A stretch of DNA of 57,816 bases, filler included, from Jimgerdemannia flammicorona (Eukaryota), in assembly GCA_003990765.1 (NCBI GenBank). It is 2 parts of 2 records of this genome, joined end to end, with 100 filler letters (N's around TTAATTAATTAA, not from the genome) between each part and the next. Parts side by side here need not be neighbours in the genome. Positions count along the whole stretch, not along the records: positions 28,979 to 57,816 come from RBNJ01000539.1; 1 more part is not named here. One strand, given 5' to 3'. Positions 17,592 through 57,816 of the stretch are shown here, in pieces (position 1 is the first letter of the stretch; each line of letters starts with the position of its first letter). The notes under the pieces are model-generated. The model was not told the DNA's origin. It ran no database searches and saw nothing but the letters and a program-made list of their open reading frames with translations. A program made the translations under genes and the position numbers.

Positions 17592-17594
17592 AGT

Positions 17595-28978: not shown

Positions 28979-29405
28979 TAATATAATTAATAATAATTTA
29001 TATATTATTAATACAAAATTACTAAATTTATAAAAAAAAAAAAGTATTTATTACTCATAAATTACAAATTTATATATTAAGATTAATTATTTATTAAGTT
29101 ATAATAATAAAAATCTCAAATTTATATTAAATAAAATCAATATTTTTTTTTTTATTAAAAAAAAAGAAACTGATAAACTAATTAAAATAAATAGATTAAC
29201 TTATAACTTTAAGAATTATATATAACTTAAAACTATAATATATAATATATAAACTAGAATTAAAAAAAATTATAAAAAAATAAGTAATATATAAAATATA
29301 ATATATATATAAAAGATTTTTTTATTAAATATTTTTCTTAAATTTAGTTACAAATATATTCTTTTACAAAAAGTAATATATTTAATAGTTAGGATTAGAG
29401 TTAGA

Positions 29406-31596
29406 CTTTAAGTAATTATTTATTTATTATGAAATAAATAAGATATATTGATATAATAAATAATATAATTACTATAGATAAGAAATACAAAATGTGGTCT
29501 GCAAAGTAAACAACTAGCTAAGAAAAATCTAAAAAAAGATAAGTAAGGTGACTACTTTAAAAAGAGAGCTAGATAAATTATTTATTATAACTATAGGAAA
29601 AATAATGATATAGAAATCAAAAAAAATAAAAAAAAACTAAGTTAAAGTATATAAATATTGTATAGTAATAGTAAGAGAATATATTGACAACTAATCACCA
29701 ATCAACTAATAATTTATATAATCTCAATAATAAGAAAAATTATCTAGAATATATAAGAGAAGAAAAAATAATAAATAATATATACAATTATATAATTATC
29801 ATTATTTTTATAATTTAAGTCAGATAAAAACTATCATATAGATAGCTATTAGAATTATACATATGTAGTATTAATAGTATAATAGTCTATCTTATAAAGA
29901 GTATAAAGAGAGTAAGCTTTAAGATCTATAATTATTTAATATTATTGAACTAGTCTAATTATTTATAACTATATTTTCCTTTTAAGATAAAATATAAATT
30001 ATTAAAAAGATTATTCTTTTAAAGAGAGCTACAGTAGAACTAATCATCATAAATTCAGATATAAAGTTGGTTGAAATAGTTATAATACTAGATAAGTATA
30101 GAATATATAAACTAAAGAGAGAAGATAAGATTATAATAAGCTTTTTGCAACTATAAGTAACTATGAAATATAATATACTAAATAAGTCTGTAGAAAGAGG
30201 AGATCTATTTTTATAATAACTAATTATATAAAAATAACAAGAGAAAAAAATAGAGTTATTATAACTTATAAAGATATTGATATCAATTAAGAAAATTAAC
30301 TAAGAAATCTAAGAGTAAAACTAGTCTTTAATAGAATCTAGAGAATATAAATAAAGTAAGTACTAAAAGAACTGATAGAATTGTTATTCAACTTATTACA
30401 CTAATTCTGATAAGCTTAGAATATATAATAGAGAACAGATATATATTAAAGAAAGATAGAAAGGCCAAAATTAAATATTAAGTATATATTTATAAGTAAA
30501 CTCAATAGTCTATACTATAGCCTTATCTAAAATTAATGTAAGAACTTTAATACTAAAAGCTTTATTATAGTAGTAGAATAGAGAGCTTAAAGAAAAAAAA
30601 AAATTAAACTTGAACTTAAATCTAATGAAACTACAAATAATGGCCAGCTTAATTAATAATAATAAAAAAGATCTATAAGTATAGTAGAAGTAAAGCAACT
30701 ATTCAACTTTAGCTATATTTGCTACAATATAGAAATAATAAAATTAAATCTATTATTAGTATATAGTATGCTCAGATATATATAAAAAAAATATAGAAAA
30801 TATGACTCACTCTCAATTAGTATAGTAGAGCCAATAGGAATAATATAACTATACTTCTTAGATAAAGCTCTATACTGTTAATATGTAGCTAATCTTTGCA
30901 AAAATCAACTATTCTCTATCTCTCAGTTATAGTTAGGATAAAAAGCTTACAATAGAGTTAATAAAGATATTGAATAGTTTGAGAGAAGAAAGCTCTAAAA
31001 GAGATTATACTTTATAGAAACTAAGAGAGTAACAAAACTATTAAAAACTATTTTATTAAATAAGTTATATTTAATACTCAAGAGAGTCTCATCAATATCT
31101 TACTTCTCTAAGTATTGAAGAATAAGCTTAAGAGAGACTTAATTATATACATATCTACTAGAGATTCAAAAAAATATAATAATCTCAACTTTTAGATTAT
31201 ATCTTATTTGAAAGTAAGATATAAGAGAGAATAGAGAAGTAAATTTAAAAACTATCTTAATAATATAATATTTTGATCAGACTACTACAACTCTTAATAT
31301 AACCTTTTAATAATAGTATTCTAATAATAAAGAGTGAGTCTCCAAACTATATATAACTACAAAAAGAATAAAAGATCTTTTAATAGACTATAAGAAGCAT
31401 TCTTCTCATCTGCTATTATTTAAAGAATTTAAATATATAAGTAGTTAGTCTAATAGTTCTTTGAGAGAAGAGAGTTATAAATAACTCTCTAAACTATAGA
31501 TTAGTTAAACTAAGACTACAGTATAAGGGCACCTATATTAAGAAAGAAGATATTCTTAAAATTATCATAATAAAAGTTGAGATATTCTAATAAAAA
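29406..31596 (-). mobile_element. Telomeric LINE unit 1 (5'-truncated, extremely AT-decayed)
   Basis: Follows degenerate GTTAGGATTAGAGTTAGA (29388-29405). Colinear with the 3' ~2.3 kb of units 6 and 7. Confidence 0.8.
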
Positions 31597-31653
31597 TAAG
31601 GTTAGAGTTAGAGTTAGGCTGTAAGTTATATTTTATTTAGAGTTAGGGTTAGG
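31597..31653 (+). repeat. Degenerate TTAGGG tracts flanking a 19-bp element 3'-end relic
   Basis: TAAGGTTAGAGTTAGAGTTAGG + CTGTAAGTTATATTTTATT + TAGAGTTAGGGTTAGG. Confidence 0.75.
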
Positions 31654-34600
31654 CTTCAAGTAAGAATTTATTTATTATAAAGAAGATAAGATATATTGGA
31701 GCAACAAATGACAAAGACTCCTTAGATGAGAAAGTAAAAAAAGGCCAGCAAAGTAAACAACTAGCTAAGAAGAACAAACAAAGCTCAGAGAGGTGATCAC
31801 TCTACAGACTTGCTGGATAAATCATTTTGTCATAGCCATAAGGATATAAATACAAAAAGTAAGAAGAGAGAAGCTAAATAAAATAAGCCTGATATTAACT
31901 ATAGGAATAATATCAACACTCAAATACTAAGTGACTAATATGAGATACATATATAACCCAATTCACTCACAACAATAAGGGAATCAACAGAGGTGAATGA
32001 GAGAAAAGAAAGAAATAAAGAAAATATATGATCACTCAATTACTTAAGTATCTTTGTAATTTTGACCAAATAGAACCTAACTACAAGGTAGTTACCAGAA
32101 TTGCACATAGCATCAATAGTATAGTAGGCTATCTTATAAAGAGTAAGAAGAGAGTAGACATGAAGTTTCTTTAGCTATTTGTTATTGATAAACCAATCAA
32201 GCTATTTATCATAATCAAAATTATCTTAGAAAGTAGAATATGAACTATTGAGAAGACTATATCTATGGAGATGGCCATGATGAAACTTATCTCTATAGAG
32301 GTAGGGACAGAGTTGCCCAAAGTAGCTATAATGCCAGATAAGCACAGAATGCACAAACTGGAGAAGAAAGGAGAGGATCCTATCAGCTCTATATAACTAT
32401 AAACAGCTATAGGGTATAATATACTAAACAAGAGCCTGGGAGAAGGAGGCCTATTCCTGTAGCAACTAGTTCTGAAGGAAAGACTTAAGAAAGGAGTAGA
32501 GAAAGTGAGTCTTATAGATCTAGAGATGAAGATCCTAGTACCAGTTGAGGAAGTTAAGTCAGGAGATTTAATACTGAAACTTATCAATAATAAAACCTAG
32601 GGGATGGGTGATAAATTGCTCACTAGGAGAGCCAATAAGATTGTTGCCAGACTTTTCTCACTAATCTAAATGGGCTTAGAATATACAGCTAAGGTCTGAC
32701 ATATGATGGAAGAAAGAAGAGAGGCCAAGAATCAAACTACCAAATAAGAGTCAGCTAGAAAATCTAACTACTGAAGCAACTGTATCATTGAGGAACTTTA
32801 ATACCTGAAGTCTTGTAGTTATAGCTAGACAGAAGGCTCATAGAAGGAAAAGGCCATACTTTAGCTAGGGCCTAATAAAAGTATATATAATGGCCAGCTT
32901 AACTATTTGAGACTAAAGAGGACTATAGATATAGTAAAACCCAAGAGTTTGCTCTGCCTTTACTATATTCTATAAAAATTCTTTATTAATATATAGTATG
33001 TCTAGATATATATAAGAGGTGGGTTGTAGGCATGGCTCACACCCAATCAGCTTAGAGCTGTTGATAGAGCCAATATATCTACACTTTTTAGAGTAGAGTT
33101 CTATACCATTCATCAACAATCAATCTTTACAAAAGTCAACTATCCTCTGGCCCTCTATTATAGTATAGAGAGTGAGAGTAATATTATCTATAAAGAAAAG
33201 TCTGAGAGAGAAGTTGTACTCCTTAAACTGCTCATCAAAGAAGGCAGCGAGAGTGTTAATGAATATGTCAAAGAGCTAAGAGGAGAGGAGGGAGCTCTGA
33301 AAAAGGCTATACTTAGTGGAGACCAAGGGGGTGATAAGACTATTAACAACTCTCTAGTAAGAATAGTAATTGAACAGGCTTTTGAATAATACTAAGAAAG
33401 ACTGCATTGATACCTTGCACCTCAAGTCTAGAAAGGATAAGCCTGAGGGGGACTCTGTCATATATCTGCCAGAGATCAAGAAAGACCTAGTGGCTTCACC
33501 TCTTGGCCCATATCTTGTACAAGAGTAAGATATAGGAGAGAGATGAGAAATAGATTCAGAAGCCACCTTGATAGCATGACATTTCTGTTGGGTCACTTTT
33601 GCTCTTGATATAGTCTTCTAAATATTATTTGAAGAGTTGGTAAAATATCTCAGTAAGAGTAATAGAGTAAAAAACATCAATCATCTGGAATTTCTCCTTT
33701 TTAAGAACTTGAGAGATGATGACAGAATTCCAGCAATATAGAGTGAGCCCCCAAATTATGCACAACTGAAAGAAGAAGGAAAGGGCTTTCAACAGACTGC
33801 AGGGAGTATCCTTCTCATCTACTATTACTCAAAGGATCTGAATATACAAGGATTCAGTACTATAGATCTTCATGGGAGAGTAGCTACAGATAACCCTCTA
33901 AACTACAGATTTTTCAAACCAAGACTGCAGCCCAAAGGCCCCCATGCTGAGAGAGAAGATGTTCTCAAAGTCATTGAGTCAAAGATTGTAGCAAAATAAA
34001 AAACCTTGTCCTCAAATACTGAGAAGGTAGAGGAGCAGAATTTGAGGAGAGCAAGGAGATGGAGTGATACAAATACTTGAAATCACAAATAGTATCAGAG
34101 ATCAAAGATATAGTATAAAAGAGGTCCCATCATAGGAGAGGCATCACTCTGATTTCTATAGCATCATATGAGTCCAGAATATCCTTACAGATGGACTCTA
34201 TAAATTGCTGGTAATCTTCTACAGAGCAAAAGCTAGTGATGTAGTTCTGAACAGAGTAAATAGACCTAACAATAGTATTGAAGACAATATCAAAAGATTC
34301 CTAAAAATGAGCTTGAATTACAAGGTCAGTCAGATATTTTGCAAAATAGCAGTAAATACCAGCTAAGACACAAACTGGTGAGAAGAAGAAGAGAAAAGAG
34401 ATAGTGATGAGGGAGATGTGGTTGGTAGAAATAAGAGGTATTGAGTAGGTGAGAGATGTATAGAGGGACACAGTGGCAAATACATGGTCAATGTATATAG
34501 ATCCAGTCACTAGGATTAGATTGTTTAGTGACCATATTATCAAGAAGATATTGATGATATCCATCTAATCACAAGGACCAGAATTGATTTCACTGAGGTA

Positions 34601-35677
34601 GATACCAAAGCATGTATTGATGTCACTAATTAAAAGAGCCTTATCCAGAAAGAGGTCAGATATGAGATTACAGAAACTACCAATAGAAAGAGAGAAGAGA
34701 GTATAAACTCCAACCAAAGCCAGACCCTAGAATAAAAGCCAGATATGAGAAGGAGTTAGTTGAGGACTCAGAAATAGAGAGGTAAAATGAGTTAATACAA
34801 GAACTACAAGACTACTATTCTGGTAGCCTATAATCTTATGCAATACTGAGAGAGTGGCTATGTGAATAAGTAGAGATAGATGTAGTAGAATATAATATAT
34901 TTCACATATATAAAGAATGTCAAAAACAGGACCAATTAACTAACTGAGTACATTGAACTAGTCTATATGTATTAAGGAATCCAACTCATATTAGGGGCCA
35001 GGTGTGTTAGTACTAATAGTATAAAAAGCATCTGAGGTAAAAGTTTCAGCTTCCAAATCTGTTACTAGATCTCTAGTTATGGCTACAGTATCACCTGTCT
35101 TTGAAGCAGAGCTAGCCAACAGTGGGACAAAGAGGGGAGAGTAAGGCTGAGTTTCATAGTACATGTCTTATAGAATATCTGGACATTAGATCTCTTTATA
35201 GTAGCATCACTAGCCAACTGCTAGACTTGAATATAGAAGATTGTAGGACCCATTCTTTTATAGCCTACATAGTGTTCTTATTATAGAAGAGTATAGGGTC
35301 TAAGGCCAAAAGTACTGAGAACCCCAGTACCTTCACTTTTATTTGGAATACTATAATATAATCAGAGTATAAGAAAAATTCAATAGTCAATACCAAGAAA
35401 TAAGATATATTGAAAACATTTCTTAACATCATATAGATATTATATAAGTTTTTCTAGATCAGTCTGATCTTCAAATAGACAATGTAATAAAAATGTGCTA
35501 TAGTTAGATAACTCTCTTAGTTAGTGACAAATAAGAGGTCAGCTTTTTGATCATATATAAGAGAGCAGAAGTAATAGTAGCTATCTCTATCTTAGGTAAG
35601 CCTGGGTCTTATTTTTGATAGAAACCTTCTTGGCAGTAGTGATATACATATGATTTGGGAGGTGGGGGTGAAAGTAG
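31654..35677 (-). mobile_element. Telomeric LINE unit 2 (5'-truncated within ORF1)
   Basis: Starts CTTCAAGTAAGAATTTATT. Contains ORF2 remnants (VTGSIYIDHVF). Breaks into degenerate telomere repeats at ~35678-35715. Confidence 0.9.
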
Positions 35678-35715
35678 AGGTTAAGGTCAGAGTTAGGAGT
35701 AGGGTTAGGGTTAGC

Positions 35716-38700
35716 CTTCAAGTAAGAATTTATTCATTATAGAGAAGATAAGATACATCAGAGCAAAAAGAGCAATGACTCATAAGATAAGAAAAGTAAA
35801 AAGAGGCCAGTGATATAAATAACTAGTTAAGAAGAACAAAACAAAAATTAGAGAGATGACTATCTTATAGATGAACTGGATAAATTTTGTCATAGCTATA
35901 AATATAATAAATGTGAAAAGCAAAAAAAATAAAAGCTAAGATATAATATACAAATACCTGGTGCCAACTATAGAAACAATATTGAAATATAAATACTAAA
36001 TAACTAATATGAGATATATAATCCAATACACTCTCAACAATTAGAGAATCAACCAAGACAAATGAGAGGAAGAAAAGAAGTAAAGAAAATATATGATTGC
36101 TCAATCACTCAGGTATCTTTATAATCTTGATCAGACAGAACCTAACTATGAGATAGTCATCAGAATTATATATAGTATTAATAATATAGTAGGCTGTCTC
36201 ATAAAGAGTATAAAGAGGGTAATTGCAAAGTTCCTCCTGCCATTCATCATTAGTAAACCAATTGAGCTATTTATCACAATCAGAATTTCCTTAGAAAGTA
36301 CAATACAAACTGTTGAGAAGACTATACTGATAGAGATACTATAATGAAACTTATCTCTACAGGAGCAGGGGCAGAGTTGATCAAAGTAGCCATAATGTCA
36401 GATAAGGGCAGAGTACACAAGCCAGGAGAGGAAGGAGAAGACATGATCAGCTCCTCTAGACTATAAATGGCCTTTAGGAGTGATGTACCAAATGAGTGCC
36501 TGAGAGGAGAAGGCCAATTCCTGGAGCAGTTAGTTCTGAAGAAATAACTGAAAGAAGGAGCGAAGTGAGCAAGTCTTACAGACCTGGGGATGAAGGTCCC
36601 AGTACCAGTCAAGAAAGTCAAGCCAGAAGGTCCATCAACAGAACTTATCAATAATAGAACCTGGGGGATATGTGACAAAGTGCTCACTAAGAGAACTAAT
36701 AGGGTTGTTGCTAAACTTGTTATACTAATCCAGATGAGCTTAGAACATACTATAGAGGTCTGATATTCAATGAAGGAAGAAAGAGAGACCAAGAATCAAA
36801 CTGTCAAGCAAGGGTCAGCTGAAAAATCCAACTGTCCAAGTGATAGTATTATCAAAGACCTGCTTAGAATACTTTAATACCTGAAGTCTCATAGTAGTAG
36901 CCAGATAGGAAGCTCATAGAAGTAGAAGACCATACTTCAGCTGAGGCCTAATGTAGATACATATAATGGCTAGCTTGACTATTGGTAACCAGAGATGACT
37001 ATGAGTACAGCAGAACCCAAGTATTCATTCCACTTTTACCACATTCTACAATGCTAGACTGATAAAGTCAAATTCTTTATTAGTATAGAGTATACTGAGA
37101 TATACATAGGATAGGAGTTGTAGGCAGAGTTCACCCCCAATCAGTATGATATAGTTGATAGAGCCAATATAACTACATTTCTTAGAATTGAGTTCCATAT
37201 TATTCACTATAAGCCAATCCTCACAGAAGTCAACCATTCACTGATCTTTTACAGCAGTACAGGGGGTGAGAGCAATATCATTGATAAAGGAGAGCTTAAG
37301 GAAAAAGTCATACTCCTTAAACTACTCATCAAAGGAGATTGCAAAGTGGTCAATAAACATGTCAAAGAGCTATGGAGAGAAGAGAGAGTTCTGAAAAAGA
37401 CCATGCTTGGTGGGGACTGCAGAAGTAATAAGGCTATTAATAATTACCTAATAGGAATAGTAATTGAAAAGACTTCTGATAATACAGAGGAGGACTACAA
37501 CAGTCTCTTACACCTCAAGCTGAAGAAGAATAAGCTTGAGAGAGACTCTATTGTAAGCTAGCTGGAGGTCCAGGAAGACACAGCAGCTCTACTTCTTAGT
37601 CTATATCTTGTGTGAGAGTAAGATATGAGAGAGGGATGAGAAGTGGGTTAAGAAGCCATCTTAGCAGTATAATATTTATATTAGACCAATTTGGCTCTTG
37701 ATATAGTTTTCCAAATACTACTCAAAGAGTTAGTAAAATATCTTAATAAGAGTAATAGGGCAAAATCTATCAATCATACATGATTCCTTCTTCTTCAGAA
37801 CTGGGGTAATGATAGCAGAATTCCAGCAGTAGAGAGTGAGCCCCCAGACTACACACAACTGGAAGAAAAAGGACAGGGCTTTCAACAGACTACAGAGAGC
37901 ATTCTTCTCACCTACTATCATCTGAAGGATCAAGACATACAAGGAGTCAACTCCATAAGCCTTTGTAAGGAGGTAGCTGTAGATGGCCCTCCAAACTGCA
38001 GACTGGTCAAATGAACACTATAGCTTAAGAGCCTCCATACCAAGAGAGAAGATGTCCTCAGAGTTGTTGAGATACAAGAATGTATTTGGCTGGCCAAAGA
38101 TTATAGTAAAATAGACAACTATATTATTAAACACCAAGACAGCAGTAGAGCAGGTTTGGAGGGGAGCAGATGGAGTAGAGTAGTATGCTTGCTTGAAACC
38201 ATGAATAGTATTGGAGACTAATAATATACTGTTAAGAAGGACCTGCTACAGGAGCAGCACTGGTCTGATCTCTCTTGTATTATATGAGCCCAGAATGTCC
38301 TTACAGATGGACTATAGACTAGAGGTTAAGAGAGAGTCAAGGGAATCTACAAAAAATTGGCAATCTTCCACAAAGTAAAAGCCAGTGATATGGTCCTAGA
38401 TGGTATAGATAGACCTAACAATGGTATTACAAATAATATTCACTAATTTGCAAAGATGAACTTGAATAACCAGATCAGTCAGATATTTCACAGAGTAATG
38501 GTAGACACTAGCTAAGATAGTAACTAGTAAGGAGGAGAAGGGAAAGGAGATAGTAAAGAGAGAGAGGTGATCAGTAGTAATAGGGGGGATTGAGTAGATG
38601 AGGAATATATAGAGAGATGTAGTAGCAAATGCATGGTCAATGCATATAGATCCAGCCACCAGAGTTAGGTAGTTCAATGACCATATCATCAGTGAGATAT

Positions 38701-40852
38701 TGATAACATCCATCTGATCCTGAGGACAAGAGTTGATATCACCAAGGTGGGCATCATAAGGTGTATTGAGGTCACCAATCTAAAGGACTTTACTCAGAAA
38801 GGGATCAGACATAAGATCATAGAAGCCATCAATAGGAAGAGAGGGGAGGGTGTAAACCCTAATCAATGTCAGGCCCAGAAATATGAGCTAGATATGGAAG
38901 GGGTCAGTAGAGGACCCAGAAATATATGAGGCAAAATGGTTTGACACAAGGACTATAAGACCACCATTCTTATGACTCATAATCCTATATAATACTGGGG
39001 GGGAGGACATGTGAATGAGTAGAGAGAGATGCTGCAGAATGTACCATATTTTACATATATAAATAATGTCAAAGATAGGACCAATCAACTGACTGAGTAT
39101 ATCAAATGTTTCCTGAGTTAATCTATATATATTGAGAAACCTGACTCTCATCGGGGACCAGGTGCAGTAGCACCAATAGTATGGAAAGTATCTGAGAAAG
39201 AAGCTTCAGCTTCCAGATCTATTACTATATCCCCAGTTATAGCCATTATATGACCTATCTTCAAAGTAGAACTAGCCATTAGAGAGATAAGAGAGAAGAG
39301 GGTGAGGCTGAGTTCTGCAGCCCATGTCTTATAGAAGGTCTGAACCTTAGGCCTGTAGTAGTATTGCCAGCCAACTACTGGACCCAGATATAAAAAGATT
39401 GGAGAACCCACACCTTTATGGCCTCTGTGGTGTTCTTATTTTGGAGAGCATGGGGTCCCAGGCTGAAAGCACCAAGAACTCAAGCATCTTTATCTTCTTT
39501 TGGAATACTGTGATATAATTAGAATATAGGAGAAATTAAATACTCAATGATGAGATATATGACATATTGAGAACCTTAGACAATATCATATAGACATCAT
39601 ACAGATTCTTCTAGATCTGTCTAATCTTAAGATAGGCAAATCCTTTAGCATAAATATACTTTAGCTAAGTACCTCTCTCAGTTGGTAATAAATGAGAGAT
39701 CAGCTTACAGGTCATACATGAAAGGACCATAGTAGCAGAAGCTCTTTCTATCTTGAGATAGACCTGAGTCCTATCCTTAACATAGACCTTCTTGGTAGTA
39801 GTAGTATATGATTTGGAGAGGGCAGAGATCAAAGCATTAGATGAAGACAGACTAGTAGAGCAGAGTTCTGCAGATATAATCTGGAGCACTGGTCTGAAGG
39901 CTTTGGTCTTACCCTTTTTAGGGGGCACAGCTTTGGTGGCTGAAGGTATAGCTATGTGAGTTGCCTCCTTAGATAGTATATTAGACTATGATGTGGTGAC
40001 TTTAATAGCCTACTTGTTTGCTCACTTATGGACCTTTGACCACATATTTGTATCAGGGCAATAGGAGGGGGGGCCAAGGACTTAAAGGGGCAGATGTAGA
40101 TGTAATAGTGGAAGGACTTCCTGAAGAAGTACCAGATAATGTGAGGGTAGTAGGTACTAATCATACAGCAAGCTACAACATCAGCTGAGTATTAATCTTG
40201 GCAAAATCTACTATTTGAGTCAACAGATCTGAAATCTATTTTCTCATAGTGGTCATCTTTATGACCAGATTGTATTTGGCTGAGGAGCTCATATAACTGA
40301 CAGTCAAGATCATACTCAAACTAGTGTTTGGATTACTGTGCTTATTCTGATTAAGAGATAGGAGTGTGAGAGAGAAGAGAGAGTACAGAGTAATATGTAT
40401 GATCCAAATTGGAAGAGATTGTGATCTCTTCATTATCTTCTGTATAATGCAGAGAAGAAATATGACAAAATCAGTCATACATCTCTACACAACCTATATA
40501 TCACCATAAGACTACTCTTACTAAAACTAAGAGAAATAAGACTGATAATATGATACTTGATAAAGCTAAGAGAAGTGCTGAAATATATAAAAAGATAGAT
40601 GACATTCAAGTCATTGCTAATGACAGAGAAGGCAGCTGACATTGCTGAATTTGACAAGGTGAGTTTGTTTGTTTATTTGAAATTGTAAAATACTAGTCAT
40701 ATGACCTTTATTTGTACAACCAAAAAATAATGAGAAAAAGGGATATTTATACCTAATGAGAGGTTAGCTGATCAAAGAGACTGCTTTCTTAATTTGAAAT
40801 AGATTCAGGCATAAAGCCAAGTATAGTCAAAAAGAGAAATAATATAAGTAGT
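35716..40852 (-). mobile_element. Telomeric LINE unit 3 (full length, ~5.14 kb)
   Basis: Both termini present. ORF1/ORF2 junction at 39148-39151. Followed by TGGGGTTAGGGTTAGG. Confidence 0.92.
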
Positions 40853-40868
40853 TGGGGTTAGGGTTAGG

Positions 40869-45990: not shown

Positions 45991-46001
45991 TTAGGATTAG
46001 G

Positions 46002-47090
46002 CATTAAGTAAAGATTTATTCATTGTAGATAAAATAAGATATATTGAAGTAATAAATGGCAAGACTCCTAAGATGAGAAAAGGAAAGCAGTCCAGACTAT
46101 CATAAGACTAGAATGACTTAGCTCAGCTAGGATGTGAAAAGCAAAAAGAGGTCAGCAAAGTAAACAACTAGCTAAAAAGAACAAAATAAAGTCCAGAGAG
46201 ATAACCATCCTATGAACAGGCTAGATAAATTATTTTGTCATAGCCATAAGAATAATAAAAGCAAAAAGCAGAAAAAGGAGAAGTAAAGATATAATATATA
46301 AATATCTGGCACTAACTATGGGAATAATATCAATACCTAAATATCAAATGACTAATATGAGATATATAACTCAATACACTCTTAACAATAAGAGAACTTG
46401 CTGGGATGAATGAGAGAAAAGAAAGAAATAAAAAAAATATCTGGTTGCTTAATTACTCAAGCATCTTTATAATCTCACTCAGGTAGAACCCAACTATAAG
46501 ATAGATACCAAAATTATACATGGTATCAATAGTATAGTAGGTAGTCTCATAAAGAGCATGAAGAGAGTAGATATGAAGTTCTCCCTACCATTTGTTACTA
46601 GTAAATCAATTGAGCTGTTCATTATAATTAGAATTATCTTAGAAAGTAGAATATAAACTATTGAGAAGATCATATCTACAGAGATATCTATATGTTATCT
46701 CCATAAGGACAGAAGTGGGATTGGCCAAAGTAGCATAAGATATAATTGGCTTCTCTAGACTATAACTAGTCTTTTGGAGTAATATAGTGAATGAGAGCCT
46801 GGAAGGAGAAGGCCTATTTCTATAGTAGCTAGTCTTAGAAAAATGACTAGAGGAAGGTGCAGAGTGAGTGAGTCTTACATACCTGGGGATGAAGGTCTCA
46901 GTACTAGTTGAGGAAGTCAAGCCAAGAGGTCTAATGGTAGGACTTATCAATAATAGAACCTAGGAGATACAGAATAAAGTACTTGCTAAGAAGACTAATG
47001 AGATTATTACCAGACTTACTACATCAATTCATGTGAGCTTGGAACATATAGCAGGGATCTAATATACAATTAAGGAATAAAGAAAGGCCA
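46002..47090 (-). mobile_element. Telomeric LINE unit 5 (5'-truncated, ~1.1 kb)
   Basis: 3' UTR plus ORF2 C-terminus, then an abrupt switch to telomere repeats. Confidence 0.9.
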
Positions 47091-47140
47091 AGGGTTAGGG
47101 TTCGGGTTAGGGTTAGGGATAGGTTAGGGTTAGGGATAGG
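47091..47140 (+). repeat. Interstitial telomere tract, ~8 TTAGGG or variant units
   Basis: AGGGTTAGGGTTCGGGTTAGGGTTAGGGATAGGTTAGGGTTAGGGATAGG. Confidence 0.95.
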
Positions 47141-47532
47141 CTTCAAGTAAGAATTTATTCATTGTAGAGAAGATAAGATATATCAGAGCAACAAACGGCA
47201 AAGACTCCTAGTGATGAGAAAAGCAAAACAAGACCAGCGAAGTAAACAACTAACTAAGAAGTACAAAACAAAGACCAGAGAGATAACCACCCTATGGATG
47301 GGCTGGATAAACCATTTAGTCATGGCCATAAAGATAATGAATGTGGAAAGCAAAGAAAGGAAGCCTAAATAAGATACACATTTGCCTGGTACCAACTATA
47401 GGGACCATATCGACAACCAAACACCAAACGACTGACATGAGATTAATAACTCAATGCGCTCTCAACAATAAGAGGACCAACCAAGGCAAACGAGGGGAAA
47501 GAAAGAAGTAAAGAAAATGTGCAATCGCTCGA

Positions 47533-50500
47533 TCACTCAAGCATCTTTGTAATCTTGGTCAGGTAGAACCCAACTGCGAGATGGCTACCAGAATTGCACA
47601 TAGCATCGATAACATGGTAGACTGTCTCATGAAGAGTGTGAAGAGGGTAGGCGCGAAGTTCTTCTTGCCATTCTTCATTGGTAAATCAATCGAGTTGTTC
47701 ATCTTGATCAGAAGAACCTCAGAATGTGGAATATGAACCGTCGAGAAGACTGCACCTGAGGAGATGGCCATGATGAAACTTATCTCCACAGGAGCATGGG
47801 CAGGGTTGGTCAAAATCACCATAACGCCAGGCGAGGGCTGAACGCACAAGCCGGGGGGGAAAGAAAAGGACACAATCAGTGCCCCATGACCACAAGTGGC
47901 CTTTGGGGGTAATATACCGAATGAGAGCCTGAGAGGAGGAGGCCCATTCTTGTAGCAGCTGATCCTAAAGGAATGACTGGAGGAAGGAGCAGAGCAGGCA
48001 AGTCTTGCAGACCTGGGGATGAAGGTCCCAGTACTAGTCGAGGAAGTCAAGCCAAGAGGTCTAATGCTGGAACTTATCAATAATGGAATCTGGGGGATGC
48101 GTGACAAAGCACTTGCTAAGAGGGCTGATGGGGCTGTTGCCAGACTTACTACACCAATGCAGATAGGCTTGGAATATGCAGCAGAGGTCAGACATATGAC
48201 GAAGGAAGGAAGTGAGACTAAGAATTGAACTGCAAGGCAAGGGATGGCCAGAAAATCCAACCACCCAGGCAATAGTGTCATCAAAGACCTGCTCAGAGTG
48301 CTTCAATACCTGAAGCCCCGTAGTAGTTGCTAGGTAGGAGGCTCGTAGAAGAGGAAGGCCATACTCTAGCTGAGGCCTAATTAATATCCATAGGATGGCC
48401 AACTTGACCATTGGTGACCAGAGGAGACCACGGGCGCAGTAGAACTCAAGAGTACATTCCACCTTTGCTGTATTCTGCAATGCGAGGCTGATAAAGTCAA
48501 ACCCTTTGTTGGTGTATGGCATGCCCAGGTACATGTAAGAAGGGGGTCACGGGCAGGGTTCACCCCCAATCTGCATAGTATAGTCAGCTGGGCCAATATA
48601 ACTGCACTTCTTGGGGTTGAGCTCTATACTATTCTCCAGAAGTCAATCTTCACAAAAGTCAATCATCCTCTGCCCTTCTGCGGTAGTGCAGGTGGTGAGG
48701 GCGATATTGTCAGTAAAGAAGAGCCTGAGAGGGAAGTCGTACTCCTTGAACTGATCTTCAAAGGAGGTGGCAAGAGGATCAATAAAGATATCAAATAGCC
48801 AGGGGGAGAGGAGAGAGCCCTGAAAGAGGCCATGCTCAGTGGGGACTAAAGGGGTGATGAGGCTATTAACAACTACCTAATAAGAACAGTGGTTGAACAG
48901 GCTTCGGATAATGCTAAGGAGGGCTGCATCAGCTCCTCACACTTCAAGTCAGGAAAGAATGAGCTTGAGGGGGACTCGATCATAAGCCTGCCAGAGGTCA
49001 AGAAAGACACAGTGGCCCCATCCCTTAGCCCATGTCTCATGCGATAACAAGACATGAGAGAGAGATGAGAAGCGGGTTTGGAAGCCGCCTTGACAGCATG
49101 ACATTTCTGTCAGGCTACTTCGGCTCTTGACATAGCCTTCCAAACACCGCTCGGAGAGTTTACGAAATATTTCAGTCAGAGCGATAGGGCGAAATCCATC
49201 AATCATACATGATTCCTCCTTCTTAGGGACTGGGGTAATGATGGCGGAGTTCCAGCAGTAGAGAGTGAGCCCCCAAACTATGCACATCTGGAAGAAAAAG
49301 GACAGGGTCTTCGATAGGCTACAAAGGGCATCCTTCTCACCTGCCATTACCCAAAGGATCTGGACATGCAAGGAGTCAGCTCCACATGCCTTCGAGAGGG
49401 GGTAGCTGTAGATAGCCCTCTAAACTACAGGTTGGTCAAACCAAGACTGCAGTCCAAGGGCACCCACACCAAGAGAGAAGACATCCTCAGAGTCATCGAG
49501 GCAGAGGGAGGCATTCAGTTGGCTGAAGATAGTGGTAAAGTGAGCAACCACATCATCAAACACTGGGACATTGGGGGAGCAAGATTGGAGGAGAGCAAGG
49601 GGGGTGGAGTAGTATGCTCACTTAAAGCCACGGATGGCATCCGAGACTGAAGATGCACTGCAAAGAAGGTCCCACCGAGGGAGTGGCACCGCCCCAATCT
49701 CTCTTGCATCATACGAGCCAAGAATGTCCTTACAAACTGACTGCAGACCAGAGGTCAAAAGGATATCAAGAGAGTCTACGAACTGCTGACGATCTTCCAC
49801 AGAGTGAAAGCCAGCGACATGATCTCTGATAGAGTAGATGGACCTGACAATAGTATCGCACATAATATCCACTGATTCCCGAAGGTGGGCTTGAACAACC
49901 AGGTCAGTCAGGTATCATACAGAGTAGTGGCGGATGCCAGCCAGGGCAGCAACTGGTGAGGGAGAGAAGGGGAAGGAGACAGTGAGGAGGGAGAGGTGAT
50001 CGGTAGCAACAGGAGGGGTGGAGTAGGTAAGGGACATATGGAGGGACATGGTGGCAAATGTGTGATCAACACGTGTGGATCCAGCCACCAGGGTCAGATG
50101 ATTCAGTGACTACATCATCAGGGAGGTATCAATGACATCCATCTGGTCCCGGAGACCAGAGTTGATATTACCAAGGCAGGTACCAAAGTGGGTATTGATG
50201 TCTCTGATCAAAAGGGCCTTACCCAGAAAGGGTCCAGACACAAGATCTTGGAAGCCACCAATGGGAAGAGAGGAGGGAGCATAAACCCCAACCAAAGCCA
50301 GGCCCCGGAACATGAGCTGGATATGGAAGGGGTCAGTGGAGGACCCAGAGATAAGGGGGGCGAAATGATTAGACATAAGAACCACAAGACCACTATTCTG
50401 GTGACCCACGATTCTGTGCGACACCAGTGGGGAGGACATATGAATGAGTGGAGAGGGATGCAGCAGAATGTGCCATATTTCACATATGAAAAGAACATCA

Positions 50501-50580
50501 AGGGCAGGACCAATCAACTGACTGAGCACATCAAACTTATCCTGAGGTAGTCTGTGTGCATTGAGGAACCTGACTCTCAT
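47533..50580 (-). pseudogene. ORF2 of unit 6: AP endonuclease + RT + C-terminal zinc knuckle (~1015 codons)
   Basis: EN: FLNAH, ICEIWH, VGVYAP, (G)DIN, VDH, TDH. RT: FRPIAL, QGGF, FLDL..AYD, QGSLLSP, FF(A)D(D), NPKKC, YLG. C-terminus CSCGDKFHHGHLLRC. Confidence 0.93.
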
Positions 50581-52074
50581 TGTGGGCTGGGCACGTTAGC
50601 ATCAACAGTGTGGGAAGCACCTGAGGTGGAAGCTTTAGCTTCCAAATCTATCGCCATCTCACCAGTCATGACCACAGTACTACCTGCCTTCGAAGCAGGG
50701 CCAGCTGACGGGGAGGCGGGGGAGAGGAGAGCGAGGCCGAGTTCCATGGCCCAAGCTCAGTAGAAGGTCTACACCTTGGGCCACTTCATAGTGGCATCGC
50801 CAGCCAACTGCCAGACCTGAGCATGGAATGACTAGAGTACTCGTGCCTTCATGGCCTCCATGGCTTTCTTGTTGTGGGGGAGCACAGGGTCTCAGGCCAA
50901 TAGCACTGAGAACCCAAGCACCTTCATCTTCTTTTGAAATGCCATGATATAATCAGGGTAGAGAAGGAACTCGATGGTCAATACTGAGACATATGATATA
51001 TTGAGAACTTTTGACAATATCACATGAACATCATATAAGTTCTTCCAGATCTACCCGATCTTAAGATGGGAAAATCCATTGATGTAAATGTGCTACAGCC
51101 AAGTGCTCTTCTCAGTCAGTGACAAATGAGAGGTCGGCTTGTGGGTCATATATGAAAGGGCTGCAGCAGCAGCTGCCCTTTCCATCTCGGGGTAGGCCTG
51201 GGTCCTATCTTTAATAGAAACCTTCTTGGTGGTGGCAGCATACAATTTGGGTGGGGTGTGGGTCAAAGCATGGGATGAAGATGGACCGGCAGTGCCAGGA
51301 CCCACAGGTGTAATCTGGGGCTCTGATCGGGGAGGCTTGGCCTTGCCCTTTTAGGGGGCGTGACTTTAGCAGCCAAGGGCATGGCTGTGGGAGTTACCTC
51401 CTTTGGCAGCACACCAGGTTGCGATGTGGTGGCTTTAGCGCCCACTTGTTAGCTCTCTTCTGGACCTTTGACCACATGTTTGCAGCAGGACCAGTAAAAG
51501 GGAGGGCCGAGGACTTGGGGGGGGCAGATATTGAAGGGGCGGCAGGGGTACTTCCCAAAGGAGTACCAGATGACAAGGGGGTGGTGGGCGCAGACCACAC
51601 AGCAAGCTGCACCATTAGCTGGGCATTGATCTTGACCAGTTCAGCCACCTGAGTCAGCAGATCCGAGATCTGCCTCCTCATCACAGCTATCTCCATGACC
51701 AGATCAGGGTCGGCTGAGGGGCCCACATGAGTGGCAGTCGGGGTCATGTCCAAACTCGTGTTCAGGCAACCATACTTGTTCCAATTGAGGGGTGGGGGTG
51801 TGGGAGAAAAGGGAGGGCGCTGGGCGTTGTGGTCTGAATCAGAAGAGATTGCGATCTCTTTGTCATCTTCCACATCGCGCAGTGAAGATAAATACACTAA
51901 TATCGATCATGCATCCCTGCATGACCTGCACATCACCATAAGGCTACCCTCGCCAAAGCCGAGAGAAAGGAGACCAATGCTGTGATATTCAATGTAGTAG
52001 AGAGAGGCACCAAAGTGCGTGAAGAGACGGGTGGTACTACCATCATCACTGATAACAGAGGAGGTGGCTGACAT
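50577..52074 (-). pseudogene. ORF1 of unit 6 (putative N-terminal C4 motif, coiled coil, Pro/Ala-rich linker, conserved alpha/beta domain)
   Basis: MSATSSVI...; EIAVMRRQISDLLTQVAELVKINAQL heptad segment; ERAAAAAALS... region, colinear with HVYIDGF...IRKNL in unit 7. Homologous in units 3, 4 and 7. Confidence 0.85.
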
Positions 52075-52296
52075 TGCCGAAATAGGCGGAGGTATATTTG
52101 CTTGTTTTTGTGAAATTGTGAAATGCGAGTCACATGACCTTTGTTTGTTCAATGAAAAAATAATGGAGAAGGGGGTATTTATACCCGATGGGAGGCTTAG
52201 CTAATCAAAGTGACTGCTTTCTTAATTTGGAATATCTTCGGGCCATAAAGCCGAGTCTACTCAAATGGGGAAATCATGTGAGTGGCTTAGATTAGG

Positions 52297-55200
52297 CTTT
52301 AAGTGAGAATTTATTCATTGTAGAAGAATAAGATACATCGGAGCAACAAATAGCAAAGACTCCTAAGATGAGAAAAGTAAAACAAGACCAGCGAAGCAAA
52401 CAACTAGCTAAGAAGTACAAGACAAAGGCCAGAGAGGTGACCACCCTATGGATGGGCTGGATAAAACCATTTTGTCACAGCCATAAAGAGAATAAATGTG
52501 AAAAGCAAGAAAAAGAGACTAATTATAATACACATTCGATCGGTGCCAACTACATGAACCGAATTGACAACCAAACACCAAACAATTGATATGAGATGAA
52601 TAACTCAATGCACTCTCAACAATGAGGGAACCAACTGAGGCAAACAAGGGGAGAGAAAGAAATAAAGAAAATGTGCAATTGCTTAATCACCCAAGCATCT
52701 TTGTAATCTCAGTCAGACAGAACCCGACTGTGAGGTGGCCACCAGAATTATACATTGCATCAATGGTATGGTAGGCTGTCTCAAAAAGAGTGTGAAGAGG
52801 GTAGGTGCGAAGTTCCTCCTGTCATTTGTCATTGGTAAACCAGTTGAGTTGTTCATCTCGATCAGGAGAATCTCAGAATATAGAATATGAACTATCGAGA
52901 AGACCTCACCTGAGGAGATGGCCATGATGAAACTTATCTCCACAGGGGCAGGGGTGGGGTTGGCCAAAGTAGCCATAATGCCAGGTAAGGGCAGAATGCA
53001 CAAGCCAGAGAAGGAAGGAGAGGACATGGTCAGTGCCCCGCGACCACAAGCAGCCTTTGGGGGTGATATACCAAATGAGAGCCTGGGAAGAAGAAGCCCA
53101 TTCCTGCAGCAGCTGATCCCGAAGGAAGGACTGGAGAAAGGAGCGGAGCGAGCGAGTCTTGCGGGCCTGGGGACAGAGGTCCCAGTACCAGTTGAGGAAG
53201 TCAAGCCAAGAGGTTCAATGCCAGAACTTGTCAATAATAGAACCTGGGGGATGTGTGACAAAGCGCTCGCTAAGGGGGCCGATGGGGTTGTTGCCAGACT
53301 TACTACACCAATTCAGATGAGCTTGGAATATGCAGCAGAGGTCAGACATATGATGAAGGAAGGAGGGGAGGACAAGAATTGAACTGCCAAGCAAGGGATG
53401 GCCTGAAAATCCGACTGCCCAAGCAACAGCATCATCAAAGACCTGCTTGGGATACTTCAATACCTGAAGCTCTGTGGTGGTAGCTGGGCAGGAGGCTCAT
53501 AGGAGGAGAAGGCCATACTTCAGCTGAGGCCTAATGAATGTCCATAGGATGGCCAGCTTGACTATTGGTGACCAGAGGGGACCACAGGTATGGCAGAATC
53601 CAAGAGTATATTCCACCTTCACTGCATTCTGTAATGTGAGGCTGAAAAATTCAAACCCTTTATTGGTGTATGGTATGCCCAGGTACATATAGGAGGGGGG
53701 TCACAGGTAGAGTTTACCCCCAATCTGTACAGTACAATCAGTAGGACCAATGTAACCACACTTCTTGGGGTTGAGCACCATACTGTTCTCCAGAAGCCAA
53801 ACCTCACAAAAGTCAATTATTCTTTGCCCTTCCGCAGCAGTGCAGGGGGTAAGGGCGATATCACCGGCAAAGAAGAGCCCAATGGGGAAGTCGTACTCCT
53901 TGAATTGTTTATCAAAGGAGGTGGCGAGGGGGTCAATGAAGACATCAAAGAGCCAGAGGGAGAGGAGGGAGCTCTGAAAATGGCCATGCTCAGTGGGGAC
54001 CAAAGGGGTGATAAGGCCATTAACAACCACCTGATAAGAACAGTGATTGAACAGATTTCAGATAATGCTAAAGAGGGCTGCATCAGCACCTCGTGCCTCA
54101 AGTTGAGAAAGAATAAGCTTGAGGGGGACTCGATCATATGACTACTAGAGATCAAGAATGACATGGTGGCCCCATCCTTTAGCCCACATCTCATGTAATA
54201 ACAAGACATGGAGAGAGATGAGAAGCGGGTTCAGAAGCCACCTTGGCAGCGTGACATTTCTGTCAGGCCACTTCGGCTTTTGATGTAACCTTCCAAACAT
54301 CACTCGAAGAGTCTACAAAACATTTCAGTCAGAGCGATAGGGCGAAATCCATCGATCGTGCATGATTCCTCTTTCTTAGGGATTGGGGTGATGATGGCGG
54401 AATTCTAGCAGCAGGGAGTGAGCCCCCAAACCATGCACATCTGGAAGAAGAAGGACAGGGCCTTCGATAGGCTACAGGGGGTGTCATTCTCATCTGCCAT
54501 CACCTGAAGGATCCGGATATGCAAGAAGTCAGCACCATATGCCTTCGAAAGGGGGTAGCTGCAGATAGCCCTCTAAACCACAGACTGGTCAAACCAAGAC
54601 TGCAGTCCAAGAGCACCTATATCAAGAGGGAAGACATCCTCAGAGTCATCAAGATAGAGGGAGGCATTCGGTTGGCCAAAGATAGTGGTAAAGTGAGCAA
54701 CCACATCATCGAACATCGAAATATTAGGGAAGCGAGATTGGAGAAGAGCAGGGGGGGTTGAGCAGTATGCTCACTTAAAGCCATAGATAGCATCCGAGAC
54801 CGAGGATACACTGTGAAGAAGGTCCCACCAAGGGAGTGGCACTGCCCTAATCTCTCTTGTGTTATATAAGCCAAGAATGTCCTCACAAACTGACTATAGA
54901 CCAGAGATCAAAAGAGTATCAAGAGAATCCACGAACTGCTGACGATCTTCCACAGAGCAAAAGCCAGCAACATGGTCTCTGATAGAGTAGATGGACCTGA
55001 TAACAGTATCACAAATGATATCCGCTGATTCCCGAAGGTGAGCTTGAATGATCAAATTGGTCAGGTATCTTGCAGAGTAGTGGCTGATACCAGCCAAGGC
55101 AGCAACTGGCGAGGGGGAGAAGGGGAAGGAGACAGTGAGGAGGGAGAGGTGGTCGGTAGCAACAGGAGGGGTGGAGCAGATGAGAGATGCATGGAGGGAT

Positions 55201-57370
55201 GTGGTGGCGAACATGTGGTCAACACATGTGGATCCAGCCACTGGGGTCAGGTGGTTCAATGACCACATTATCAGAGAGGTATCGATGACATCCATCTGAT
55301 CCTGAGGACCAGAGTTGACATCACTAAGGTGGGCACTGAAGCGGGTATTGATGTTACCAATCAAAAGGGTCATACCCAAAAAGGGTCCAGATACAAGATC
55401 CCGGAAGCCATCAATGGGAAGAGAGGGGGGGGCATAAACCCCAACCAAAGCCAGGCTCTATAATATGAGCTGGATATAGAAGGGGTCAGCGGAGGACCTG
55501 GAAATAAGGTGGGCAAAATGGTTTGACATAAGAACTATGAGACCACCATTCTGATGACCCATGATTCTGTGCAACACTGGAGGAGAGGACATGTGAATGA
55601 GCGGAGAGGGATGCAGTGGAATGTGCCATATTTCACATATCAAAAGAATGTCGAGGGCAGGACCAATCAACTGACTGAGCACATCAAACTTGTCCTGGAG
55701 TAGTCCATGTGCATTGAGGAACCCAACTCTCATTGTGGGCCAGGTGCATTAGTGCCAACAGCGTGGGAAGCACCTGAGGTAGAAGCTTCGGCTTCCAAAT
55801 CCATCACCATCTCACCAGTCATGGCCACAGTACCACCCGCCTTCAAAGCAGGGCCAGCCAATAGGGAGGCAGGGGAGGAGAGAGTAAGGCCGAGTTCCGT
55901 GGCCCAAGCTCGATAGAAGGTCTGTACCTTGGGCCACTTTGCAGTAGCATCACCAGCCAACTGCCAGACCTGAGCAGAGAATGATTAGAGTACCCGTGTC
56001 TTCATGACCTCCATGGCGTCCTTGTTGCGGGGAGCGCAGGGTCTCAGGCTGACAGCATCGAGAACCTGAGCATCTTCATCTTCTTTTGGAATGCCATAAC
56101 ATAATTAGGGCAGAGAAGGAATTTGATGGTCAATGCCGAGATGTACAATATGTTAAGAACTTTTGACAACATCATATAGACGTTGTACAAGTTCTTCCTG
56201 ATCGGCCCGATCTTAAGATGGGCAAACCCGTCAATGTAAACATGCTGCAGCCTAGCACTCTTCTCAGTTAGTGACAAATGAGAGGTTGGCTTGCAGGTCA
56301 TGCATGAAAGGGCTGTAGCAGCAGCTGCGCTTTCCATCTTGGGGTAGGTCTGGGTCCTATTCTTGATAGAGACCTTCTTGGTGGTGGCGGCATATGATTT
56401 GGGGGGGCGGGGGTCAAAGCATAGGATGAAGACAGACCAGCAGCACTGGGACCTGTAGGTGAAACCTGAGGCTCTGGCCTGAGAGCCTTGGCCTTGCCCT
56501 TTTTAGGGGGCGTGGCTTTAGCGGCCTGCTTGTCTGCTCGCTTCTGGGCCATCAACTGCATATTCGCAGCAGGAGCAGTAGGAGGGGGGGCCAAGGACTT
56601 GGTGGGGGCAGATGTGGAAAGGGTGGCAGGGGTACTTCCCAAAGGAGCACCAGATGACGAGGGGGTGGTGGGCGCAGATTGTGCAGCAAGCTGAGCCTTC
56701 AGCTGGGCATTGATCTTGGCCAGTTTGGCCACTTGAGTTAGCAGATCCGAGATCTGCTTCCTCATCGCAGCCATCTCTATGACCAGATCAGGGTCAGCTG
56801 AGGGGCCCGCATGACCGGCAGTCAGGGTCATACCCAAATTAGTGTTTGGGTGACCGCACTTATTCTGATTGAGGAGTGGGGGCATGGGAGAGAAGGGAGG
56901 GTATGGGTGTTATGGTCTGAATCGGAAGAGATCATGATCTCTTCATTATCTTCCACATCACACAGAGAAGATAAATATGCTGATATTGGTCATGCATCCC
57001 CGCACGACCTGCATATCACCGTAAGGCTACCCTCACTGAAGCCGAGGGAGAGAAGACCAATGCTGTGACATTCCGTATAGTGAAGAGAGGCGCTGAAGCA
57101 CGCGAAGAGGTGAGTGGTGCTGCCGTCATCACCGATGATGGAGGAGGTGGCCGACATTGCTGAATTAGGCAGAGGTATGTTTGTTTGTATTTGTGAAATT
57201 GTGAAACGTGGGTCATGTGACCTTTGTTTGTACAACAAAAAAATAATAAGGAAAGGGGGTATTTATACCTGATGAGAGGCTTAGCTAATCAAAGTGACTG
57301 CTTTCTTAATTTGGAATAGCTTTGGGCCATAAAGCCGAGACTAGCCAAATGGGGAAATCCTGTGAGTGGC
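52297..57370 (-). mobile_element. Telomeric LINE unit 7 (full length, ~5.07 kb, lightly mutated); ORF1 57157-55730, ORF2 55733-52687
   Basis: Same motifs as unit 6. Flanked by TTAGATTAGG (52287-52296) and TAGGGTTAGG (57371-57380). Confidence 0.95.
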
Positions 57371-57380
57371 TAGGGTTAGG

Positions 57381-57788: not shown

Positions 57789-57816
57789 TTTTTTTTTTTT
57801 TTTTTTTTTTTTTTTT

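Follow-up and report, generated by a model that had tools for sequence, protein, structure and literature searches.

Studies of telomere-targeting retrotransposons usually concern organisms, among them Drosophila and the blast fungus, whose arrays have a rapid turnover that erases the history of the chromosome end. TRAS1 and SART1 of Bombyx mori are telomeric-repeat-specific long interspersed nuclear elements (LINEs) of the R1 clade with an APE endonuclease; their copies end in poly(A), and their target in insects is TTAGG. Here we describe a chain of LINE copies separated by telomere repeats in the fungus Jimgerdemannia flammicorona (assembly GCA_003990765.1). The window, that is, the whole stretch of DNA that was analysed (57,816 nucleotides, filler included), places positions 28,979-57,816, which come from record RBNJ01000539.1, after a part of another record and filler, and the parts need not be neighbours in the genome. 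Our findings indicate that the chain, at 29389-57788, is probably a fossil-to-recent series of one telomere-repeat-targeting LINE, each copy having been added outside the earlier ones in at least three waves.

Like TRAS and SART, the present element is a LINE with a predicted APE endonuclease and a reverse transcriptase (RT) that occupies telomerase-made repeats, always in one orientation and one register, and builds chains close to chromosome ends, a likeness that is functional. Unlike them, it lacks poly(A), its 3' end passes straight into CCTAA, and its host is a fungus.

Fungal non-LTR (long terminal repeat) retrotransposons in TTAGGG telomeres are represented by MoTeR1/2 of Pyricularia (Magnaporthe) oryzae (PMC7367193) and the FoTeRs of Fusarium oxysporum (PMC12857005). 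According to the available parts of these accounts, they share with the present array 5' ends that face the chromosome end, short interstitial tracts and the distal acquisition of new copies, and dead FoTeR copies decay by repeat-induced point mutation (RIP; PMC12857005), as those here appear to do. MoTeR and FoTeR elements have a C-terminal restriction-enzyme-like (REL, PD-(D/E)XK) endonuclease of the CRE/SLACS type, which is preceded by a CCHC motif, as far as the same source extends (PMC12857005), whereas the present element has an N-terminal APE-like domain and another open reading frame (ORF) layout. Its APE-RT-CCHC order, together with the lack of a REL match, indicates that it is not of the MoTeR/FoTeR type. 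No age ladder appears in the accessible portions of the two accounts (PMC7367193, PMC12857005).

For HeT-A, TART and TAHRE of Drosophila, the available portions of two sources (10.1101/782904, PMC5537684) describe head-to-tail terminal additions with 3' ends on the centromere side, 5'-truncated terminal copies and tandem runs of the same subfamily. The growth features of this kind found here are the head-to-tail arrangement, the proximal 3' end and the distal position of newer copies. In contrast to the present array, no telomerase repeats lie between the Drosophila elements, which carry poly(A) (10.1101/782904, PMC5537684, in the same portions). Rapid turnover leaves those arrays a narrow view of the past, according to the part of 10.1101/782904 available, whereas deeply decayed strata survive here.

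The Athena/Coprina Penelope-like elements resemble the present element in that the 3' end bears a short run of telomere repeat, copies are truncated on the 5' side and new copies join exposed chromosome ends, as described in the accessible text of PMC5537684. They are endonuclease-deficient and use a Penelope-type RT (PMC5537684), while the element studied here is APE-like and its relatives retain the APE catalytic motifs; this conservation argues that it is not an endonuclease-deficient Penelope-like element. Cnl1 of Cryptococcus is also a fungal LINE; its subtelomeric arrays, 5-80 kb in size, both grow and shrink and can spread to naive ends. Unlike the present element, it also inserts in genes such as FRR1, and the available part of its account describes neither a telomere-tract junction register nor an age order (10.1101/2021.08.11.455996).

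The literature searched, with most subscription journals outside its reach, yielded neither a description of an APE-type, telomere-repeat-specific fungal LINE nor an age ladder measured on an array of that sort. Systems of this kind are known, but the record is unusually well preserved, and such a clear age ladder is rarely seen.

Architecture of the array

The chain comprises eight head-to-tail copies (U1-U8) of an element of about 5.15 kb and an 18-nt stub (Table 1). A preliminary description of this DNA had counted seven units; the position it gave for the start of the array, 29406, is exactly the first base of U1. The unit map is based on self-BLAST, junction inspection and a profile built from the units, and the unit limits used for statistics include a few leading-tract bases, which does not affect the results. 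Searching the window with the profile gave nine matches, all on the plus strand and inside 29389-57802, and nothing outside the array, with no older copies proximal to 29389. The motif TTAGGGTTAGGG, allowing up to two mismatches, occurs 22 times and on the plus strand only, compared with 6.29 +/- 2.59 occurrences in shuffled sequences (0 of 100 shuffles reach 22).

The units are separated by TTAGGG-type tracts of 10-52 nt. All nine proximal (3'-end) junctions have an identical register, which reads on the plus strand ...TTAG(G/A/C) followed by C(T/A)(T/G/C)(T/C)AA(G/C). The sense strand of the element is the minus strand, with its 3' end on the centromere side and its 5' end distal. On this strand, the 3' end ...CTTGAAG leads directly into CCTAA(C) without an A run; seen on the G strand, the junction is ...TTAGG followed by CTTCAAG. 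Because the G-rich strand runs 5' to 3' rightward, the chromosome end would lie to the right, and we infer that the right end of the chain faces a true chromosome end.

Four units of about 5.1 kb (U3, U4, U6 and U7) are full length and have one common 5' end, ...GTGAGTGG. Of the other entries of the chain, U1, the stub, U2 and U5 are truncated on the distal side at four different points, with a telomere repeat after each, an arrangement that fits separate retrotranspositions. The junction tracts do not share one identical sequence. At the window end, a T28 run stands where other units read ...TTGTAATCT...; it is probably an artefact of the assembly end, so that what really follows in U8, and any telomere at the end, would be missing. 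The TTCGGG repeat of the longest tract is a variant also found at MoTeR 5' ends in the blast fungus, according to the available part of PMC7367193, which may be a coincidence.

Table 1. Features of the telomeric LINE chain (window positions; tracts T0-T8, units U1-U8)
Feature	Positions	Strand	Description
T0	29389..29405	+	Decayed G-strand telomere tract, 17 nt, proximal array edge
U1	29406..31601	-	Oldest copy, 5'-truncated, 3'-terminal ~2.3 kb of element, GC 0.204, no CpG
T1	31602..31618	+	Telomere tract, 17 nt
Stub	31619..31636	-	Last 18 nt of element 3' end, extreme 5' truncation
T2	31637..31653	+	Telomere tract, 17 nt
U2	31654..35692	-	5'-truncated copy, 4.04 kb, middle stratum
T3	35693..35715	+	Telomere tract, 23 nt
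U3	35716..40851	-	Full-length, middle stratum
T4	40852..40868	+	Telomere tract, 17 nt
U4	40869..45990	-	Full-length, middle stratum
T5	45991..46001	+	Telomere tract, 11 nt
U5	46002..47088	-	5'-truncated copy, 1.09 kb, middle stratum
T6	47089..47140	+	Longest telomere tract, 52 nt, with one TTCGGG and two GGGATAGG; at middle/young boundary
U6	47141..52286	-	Full-length young copy; predicted APE, RT and CCHC region 47737-50595
T7	52287..52296	+	Telomere tract, 10 nt
U7	52297..57369	-	Full-length young copy, at least one frame change
T8	57370..57380	+	Telomere tract, 11 nt
U8	57381..57788	-	3' end of a further young copy, cut by window end
T28 run	57789..57816		Replaces expected element sequence

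Transition-independent clocks

We call a transversion private if a single unit departs in purine/pyrimidine class from every other unit present at the site. Such changes drop about 15-fold from U1 to U6 and U7 (Table 2). Transversion divergence is therefore not equal across units, and the proposal in the preliminary description that copies were added successively at the distal side gains support. In a region-matched comparison of the 974 columns common to U1-U7, the bootstrap intervals of three strata (U1; U2-U5; U6-U7) do not overlap.

Other measures agree on the same three strata. Transversion distances from U1 to all other units are 0.10-0.13, those among U2-U5 and from these to younger units are 0.037-0.065, and U6 and U7 differ by 0.015-0.016. 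A maximum-likelihood tree built on purine/pyrimidine coding recovers the strata and supports the U6-U8 clade at 100%; U3 and U4 have 19 transversions in common. Indel density relative to U6 also declines outward, step by step from U1 to U4, with a similarly low value in U7. The transversions of U1 are spread evenly along its length (2-30 per 200-column bin, no outlying block), which indicates that misalignment in AT-rich sequence is not their cause. Across seven units, position and private transversions are correlated with a Spearman rho of -0.857 (exact one-sided p 0.012), and strata sized 1, 4 and 2 would fall in perfect order by chance with a probability of 1/105 if the units are independent.

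Table 2. Composition and divergence of the units (o/e, observed/expected; UTR, untranslated region; matched values and private transversions per site refer to the 974 common columns; terminal branches are from the purine/pyrimidine tree)
Unit	GC	GC, matched	CpG o/e	CpG count	TpA/ApT	Private transversions/sites	Private transversions per site	Indels per kb vs U6	Terminal branch	1st+2nd-position transversion decay
U1	0.204	0.182	0.00	0	1.27	160/1959	0.081 (0.065-0.099)	11.4	0.104	0.058
U2	0.351	0.334	0.01	1	1.12	111/3566	0.021	5.1	0.037	0.015-0.021
U3	0.371	0.335	0.01	2	1.02	97/4483	0.014	3.3	0.023	0.018-0.019
U4	0.385	0.364	0.04	7	0.96	97/4468	0.019	2.3	0.025	0.017-0.021
U5	0.325	0.325	0.00	0	1.11	19/842	0.018	5.6 (short, noisy)	0.024	
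U6	0.493	0.448	0.35	106	0.66	33/4409	0.005		0.006	0.003-0.004
U7	0.490	0.457	0.34	102	0.60	34/4414	0.007	2.1	0.008	0.005-0.006
U8	0.382 (3' UTR only)		0.33	5	0.81	5/334		9.9 (short, noisy)	0.017	

Since all copies are sampled today, unequal root-to-tip lengths mean different rates, and transversions were accordingly split by codon position. The split covers the coding parts only, read in the unbroken U6 frame, and internal-branch changes are those common to U6 and U7 or to U3 and U4. Third positions account for 27 of 41 internal-branch transversions but for 84 of 210 private ones (Fisher p 0.003, odds ratio 2.9). The excess on internal branches indicates that the shared changes arose in a lineage still under coding selection, while its absence among private changes indicates that these mostly arose after the death of the copy. 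The source was thus active between waves, and the copies decayed after arrival. At first and second positions, the decay of the three strata stands in a ratio of about 12-15 : 4 : 1.

A separate, older stratum for U2 was considered, as suggested by the tree and by its total private transversions (0.0306 vs 0.016-0.021). It was dropped because the first- and second-position rate of U2 equals that of U3 and U4, and its third-position excess (39 of 77) points to source divergence rather than longer decay.

The codon-position data also bear on the possibility that divergence reflects different source subfamilies inserted in no time order. The strata are indeed clades as well, as the U6-U8 support and the changes common to U3 and U4 show, and the excess of third-position private changes in U1 and U2 means that their distance is partly source divergence. 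However, first- and second-position transversions, frameshifting indels, total CpG loss and stops all follow position, and an active subfamily could not carry these; a recent insert of a divergent subfamily would have kept its CpGs and an open frame. We regard an order of subfamilies without an order in time as very improbable.

Base composition and neighbouring elements

GC and CpG content climb outward in three steps (U1; U2-U5; U6-U8), so that the gradient reported in the preliminary description holds as an outward rise, although it is a staircase rather than a smooth slope. Its distinction between intermediate U2-U5 and GC-rich U6-U7 with CpGs is borne out (GC 0.325-0.385 vs 0.490-0.493; CpG o/e at most 0.04 vs 0.34-0.35), whereas "almost pure A/T" overstates the case of U1, which is the most AT-rich unit but has 80% A+T. 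The whole-unit GC dip of U5 arises because this copy has just the AT-richer 3' part. The bin at 29001-30000 has a GC of 0.136 and is the sole bin that low. For seven units, the Spearman rho between position and GC is +0.786 (p 0.024).

Toward the centromere side, the share of ancestral C that is now T grows in all contexts; CpG and CpA are the most affected, in the order CpG > CpA > CpC > CpT; ancestral states were inferred by a G/C-favouring rule, and all absolute shares are consequently overstated. At CpA, it is 0.15 in U7 and 0.16 in U6, then 0.39, 0.43 and 0.49 in U4, U3 and U2, and 0.77 in U1, compared with 0.12-0.13 (U6-U7), 0.15-0.21 (U2-U4) and 0.39 (U1) at CpT. This pattern of transitions resembles that of RIP, with a CpG contribution on top.

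The minus strand at 10078-27567, in the preceding part of the window, which need not adjoin the array in the genome, carries Gypsy-type LTR retrotransposons that include protease, dUTPase, RT, RNase H and integrase. Their arrangement is a tandem LTR-internal-LTR-internal, to which a solo LTR at 10078-10323 is added. Between copies A (11019-17880) and B (19516-26388), transitions amount to 0.149 per site but transversions to only 0.013, and their GC is about 0.43 and 0.34, respectively. By transversion distance, they are about as young as U6 and U7, and their insertion sites in the window are proximal to the old LINE copies; the contrast between them implies that GC and CpG alone make a poor clock.

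These copies are relevant to the idea that all LINE copies have the same age and that RIP or methylation-driven mutation is simply stronger toward the AT-rich core near 29-30 kb. GC falls toward about 29 kb from the left too (Gypsy copies about 0.43, 0.34 and 0.29, then 0.136 at 29-30 kb), and copy B carries 783 C-to-T/G-to-A differences, against 234 the other way, despite the small transversion distance. What such an effect does not explain is the roughly 15-fold difference in transversions and 5-fold difference in indels across 25 kb, nor the supported internal branches (U6-U8 at 100%; 47 transversions in common over 3991 columns), which no star of equally old copies could show; in addition, the shared changes bear the signature of coding selection. 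A position effect in its pure form is refuted here, and we leave it scant probability, while position or chance still modulates the transition load.

Other features were observed in the preceding part. On the minus strand of positions 1-4500 is another, unrelated non-LTR RT (RVT_1, E 2e-23); GC is 0.41-0.55 in this stretch, where the plus strand is strikingly C-rich (GC skew -0.25 to -0.45). An inverted repeat of about 400 bp with 86% identity (4094-4489 and 28479-28876) has a right arm that stops 2 bases before two 44-base N runs (28879-28922 and 28935-28978), just proximal to the array.

Coding content and relatives of the element

The open frames are on the minus strand, and the long ORF pieces noted earlier in U6 and U7 are present there. 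Through all of its 5.1 kb, U6 stays in one frame, interrupted by 37 in-frame stops but by no frameshift, which indicates that its damage is almost purely base substitution. When the whole unit is read through with X at stops, Pfam identifies RVT_1 in U6 (E 7e-16) and U7 (E 1.8e-6); ten single ORF pieces gave only two weak RVT_1 matches, below the cut-off. Codons 297-563 of the U6 frame contain stops common to all units and probably represent a spacer between a first ORF and the APE-RT ORF.

The predicted APE-RT-CCHC part of U6 (47737-50595), compared with a library of 1.84 billion proteins at E<=0.001, matched 18264 proteins, the top one being P0001 (E 9e-117, 34% identity, residues 7-952), and the U6 protein aligns with its relatives from residue 7 on. 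A word-indexed protein search with an RT piece of 156 aa gave 171 candidates, of which none scored, and looking up the clusters of eight relatives yielded neither taxa nor informative names. RVT_1 was found in all six relatives tested and Exo_endo_phos in two of them, once above and once below the Pfam cut-off. Among 15 aligned relatives, the N, E-T-W, G-D-x-N and D-H endonuclease motifs, the RT motif A-D-D and the C-terminal cysteines are invariant, and the endonuclease motifs are mostly legible in U6 as LNAH, CEIWH, RDIN, VDH and TDH. The domain order is an APE-like N-terminus, then RT, then a C-terminal CCHC. No REL-type family matched in Pfam, either in the U6 and U7 read-throughs or in the six relatives. 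The element is, on these sequence grounds, a LINE with a predicted APE-type endonuclease, RT and a C-terminal CCHC, without poly(A).

A scan of metagenome contigs with the alignment of 15 relatives returned 332 related stretches, of which the best 80 were analysed. Telomere-like tracts of at least 11 nt accompany 9 of these 80 loci; eight of the nine are C-strand tracts downstream of the ORF, in the orientation seen here, and seven of those eight belong to the 12 best loci. One relative (L008, 10001-13814) has the same CCTAACCCTAACCCC tail in the middle of a 90-kb environmental contig, which implies that telomere-tailed copies can end up, or insert, far from a contig end.

Polarity in related environmental arrays

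Two of the environmental loci contain several copies. L007 has a near-complete copy at the contig end, followed proximally by truncated copies of 128 and 216 nt, and private changes number 1, 2 and 15 from distal to proximal (128 common columns). In L009, three copies of 2.4-2.8 kb show 0.092, 0.107 and 0.130 private transversions in the same direction (2166 columns), and CpG o/e falls through 0.57, 0.51, 0.35 and 0.11. Both loci lean the predicted way, and neither is strong. A junction block of L009 (unit 3' end, tract and next unit start, 2228-2743) recurs 5.7 kb downstream at 7925-8469 with 69% identity, which may point to DNA-level duplication as the origin of some of that array.

Proposed mechanism and mode of growth

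Reverse transcription of the element RNA would be primed from a free G-strand 3' end, which could be the natural overhang or could come from nicking of the terminal tract by the element endonuclease, and the new copy would be placed outside all earlier copies. Incomplete copying or later erosion may produce the distal truncations, after which telomerase would re-cap the new end and trap a few repeats between copies. At least three waves of addition are envisaged: U1, then U2-U5, then U6-U8. After arrival, copies would accumulate RIP-like C-to-T decay, ordinary transversions and indels, with decay stepping up inward. We infer the priming step and the part played by telomerase from the arrangement described above.

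The preliminary description had argued that random insertion into a long telomere tract would not give the observed order. This is half right: the conclusion is kept but the argument is weakened, since a copy inserted anywhere in the terminal tract ends up outside every copy already there, and an endonuclease-driven, telomere-repeat-specific LINE thus yields the same polarity. Only insertions into the trapped 10-52-nt tracts could break the order. Copy order is the same for overhang priming and tract nicking and does not discriminate between them.

Some of the chain, and above all the full-length runs U3-U4 and U6-U7-U8, could instead have grown at the DNA level, through break-induced replication, D-loop tandem amplification, unequal exchange or copying of a distal block from another chromosome end. 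Units inside each stratum are equally old, as this would predict, although near-simultaneous retrotransposition gives equal ages too. U6 and U7 have 11 of 25 stop positions in common, and full-length units are followed distally by tracts of similar, short length (17, 11, 10 and 11 nt); near-identical interstitial tracts are a signature of D-loop amplification in MoTeR arrays, in the accessible part of PMC7367193. Here, however, the junction tracts differ in sequence, and the four truncated units have four truncation points. We judge DNA-level growth of these runs distinctly unlikely, and under it the younger material would still be distal, so that the mechanism changes and the polarity does not.

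Tract length itself differs between the two kinds of unit: tracts distal to truncated units measure 17, 17, 23 and 52 nt, longer than those distal to full-length units (Mann-Whitney one-sided p 0.029, with only 4 vs 4 values). In the blast fungus, interstitial tracts of more than two repeats break often and just the short ones are stable, according to the available part of PMC7367193. By analogy, survival of short tracts would be a sufficient explanation for the short tracts here.

Both clear age steps, U1 to U2 and U5 to U6, follow truncated units. A general rule that age steps always occur at truncated units was set aside, as there is no clear step from U2 to U3 and the chance of the coincidence is about 3/21 (hand arithmetic), which is only suggestive. 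Tract lengths and the positions of the age steps point to bursts and pauses, in numbers too small for a claim. A rather unlikely scenario is that, in each episode, several full-length copies were stacked quickly with about two repeats between them (U3-U4-U5; U6-U7-U8), and that the outermost copy was then eroded and healed by telomerase with a longer tract (52 nt after U5) before a long phase of ordinary telomere.

Several points weigh against a chain of successive distal additions in at least three waves by an APE-type LINE. The evidence comes from one array of seven to eight units in three strata, and the order has a chance of 1/6 if each stratum is one event. No order is apparent within strata: U3 is not older than U4, nor is U2 older than U3 and U4 at first and second positions. 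The terminal branches of U1 and U2 are partly source divergence, given their third-position excess, and overstate age. At equal transversion distance, C-to-T changes are more numerous in Gypsy copy B, which is closer to the AT-rich core, than in copy A, and a higher rate of all kinds of mutation toward that core is formally conceivable. The window holds no terminal telomere, stopping in the T28 run within U8. The APE region of U6 has no Pfam match even at E<=1. A four-unit comparison in L009 (208 columns) shows no trend, with 16, 19, 11 and 16 private changes. Finally, the stop positions common to U6 and U7 may be inherited damage, which would imply a dead template; as proof of such a template they fail, because CGA and TGG codons are parallel hot spots. 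With these points taken into account, successive distal addition remains the probable history of the chain.

Significance

This analysis adds a quantitative three-step stratigraphy from RIP-independent clocks and a codon-position test that separates the evolution of an active source from decay in place and is applicable to any such array. It also adds a predicted APE-type, poly(A)-less, telomere-tailed fungal LINE with many environmental relatives. If the burst-and-pause scenario were true, the LINE would be an episodic back-up cap, used when telomerase-made repeats become critically short, and a truncated copy with a long tract would be an "unconformity" readable at every chromosome end of such fungi. 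The trapped scraps of telomere and the three strata of decay preserve a dated succession of events at a single chromosome end, which allows us to measure how often the end was extended, whether copies arrived in bursts, and how fast RIP-like decay proceeds relative to a neutral clock.

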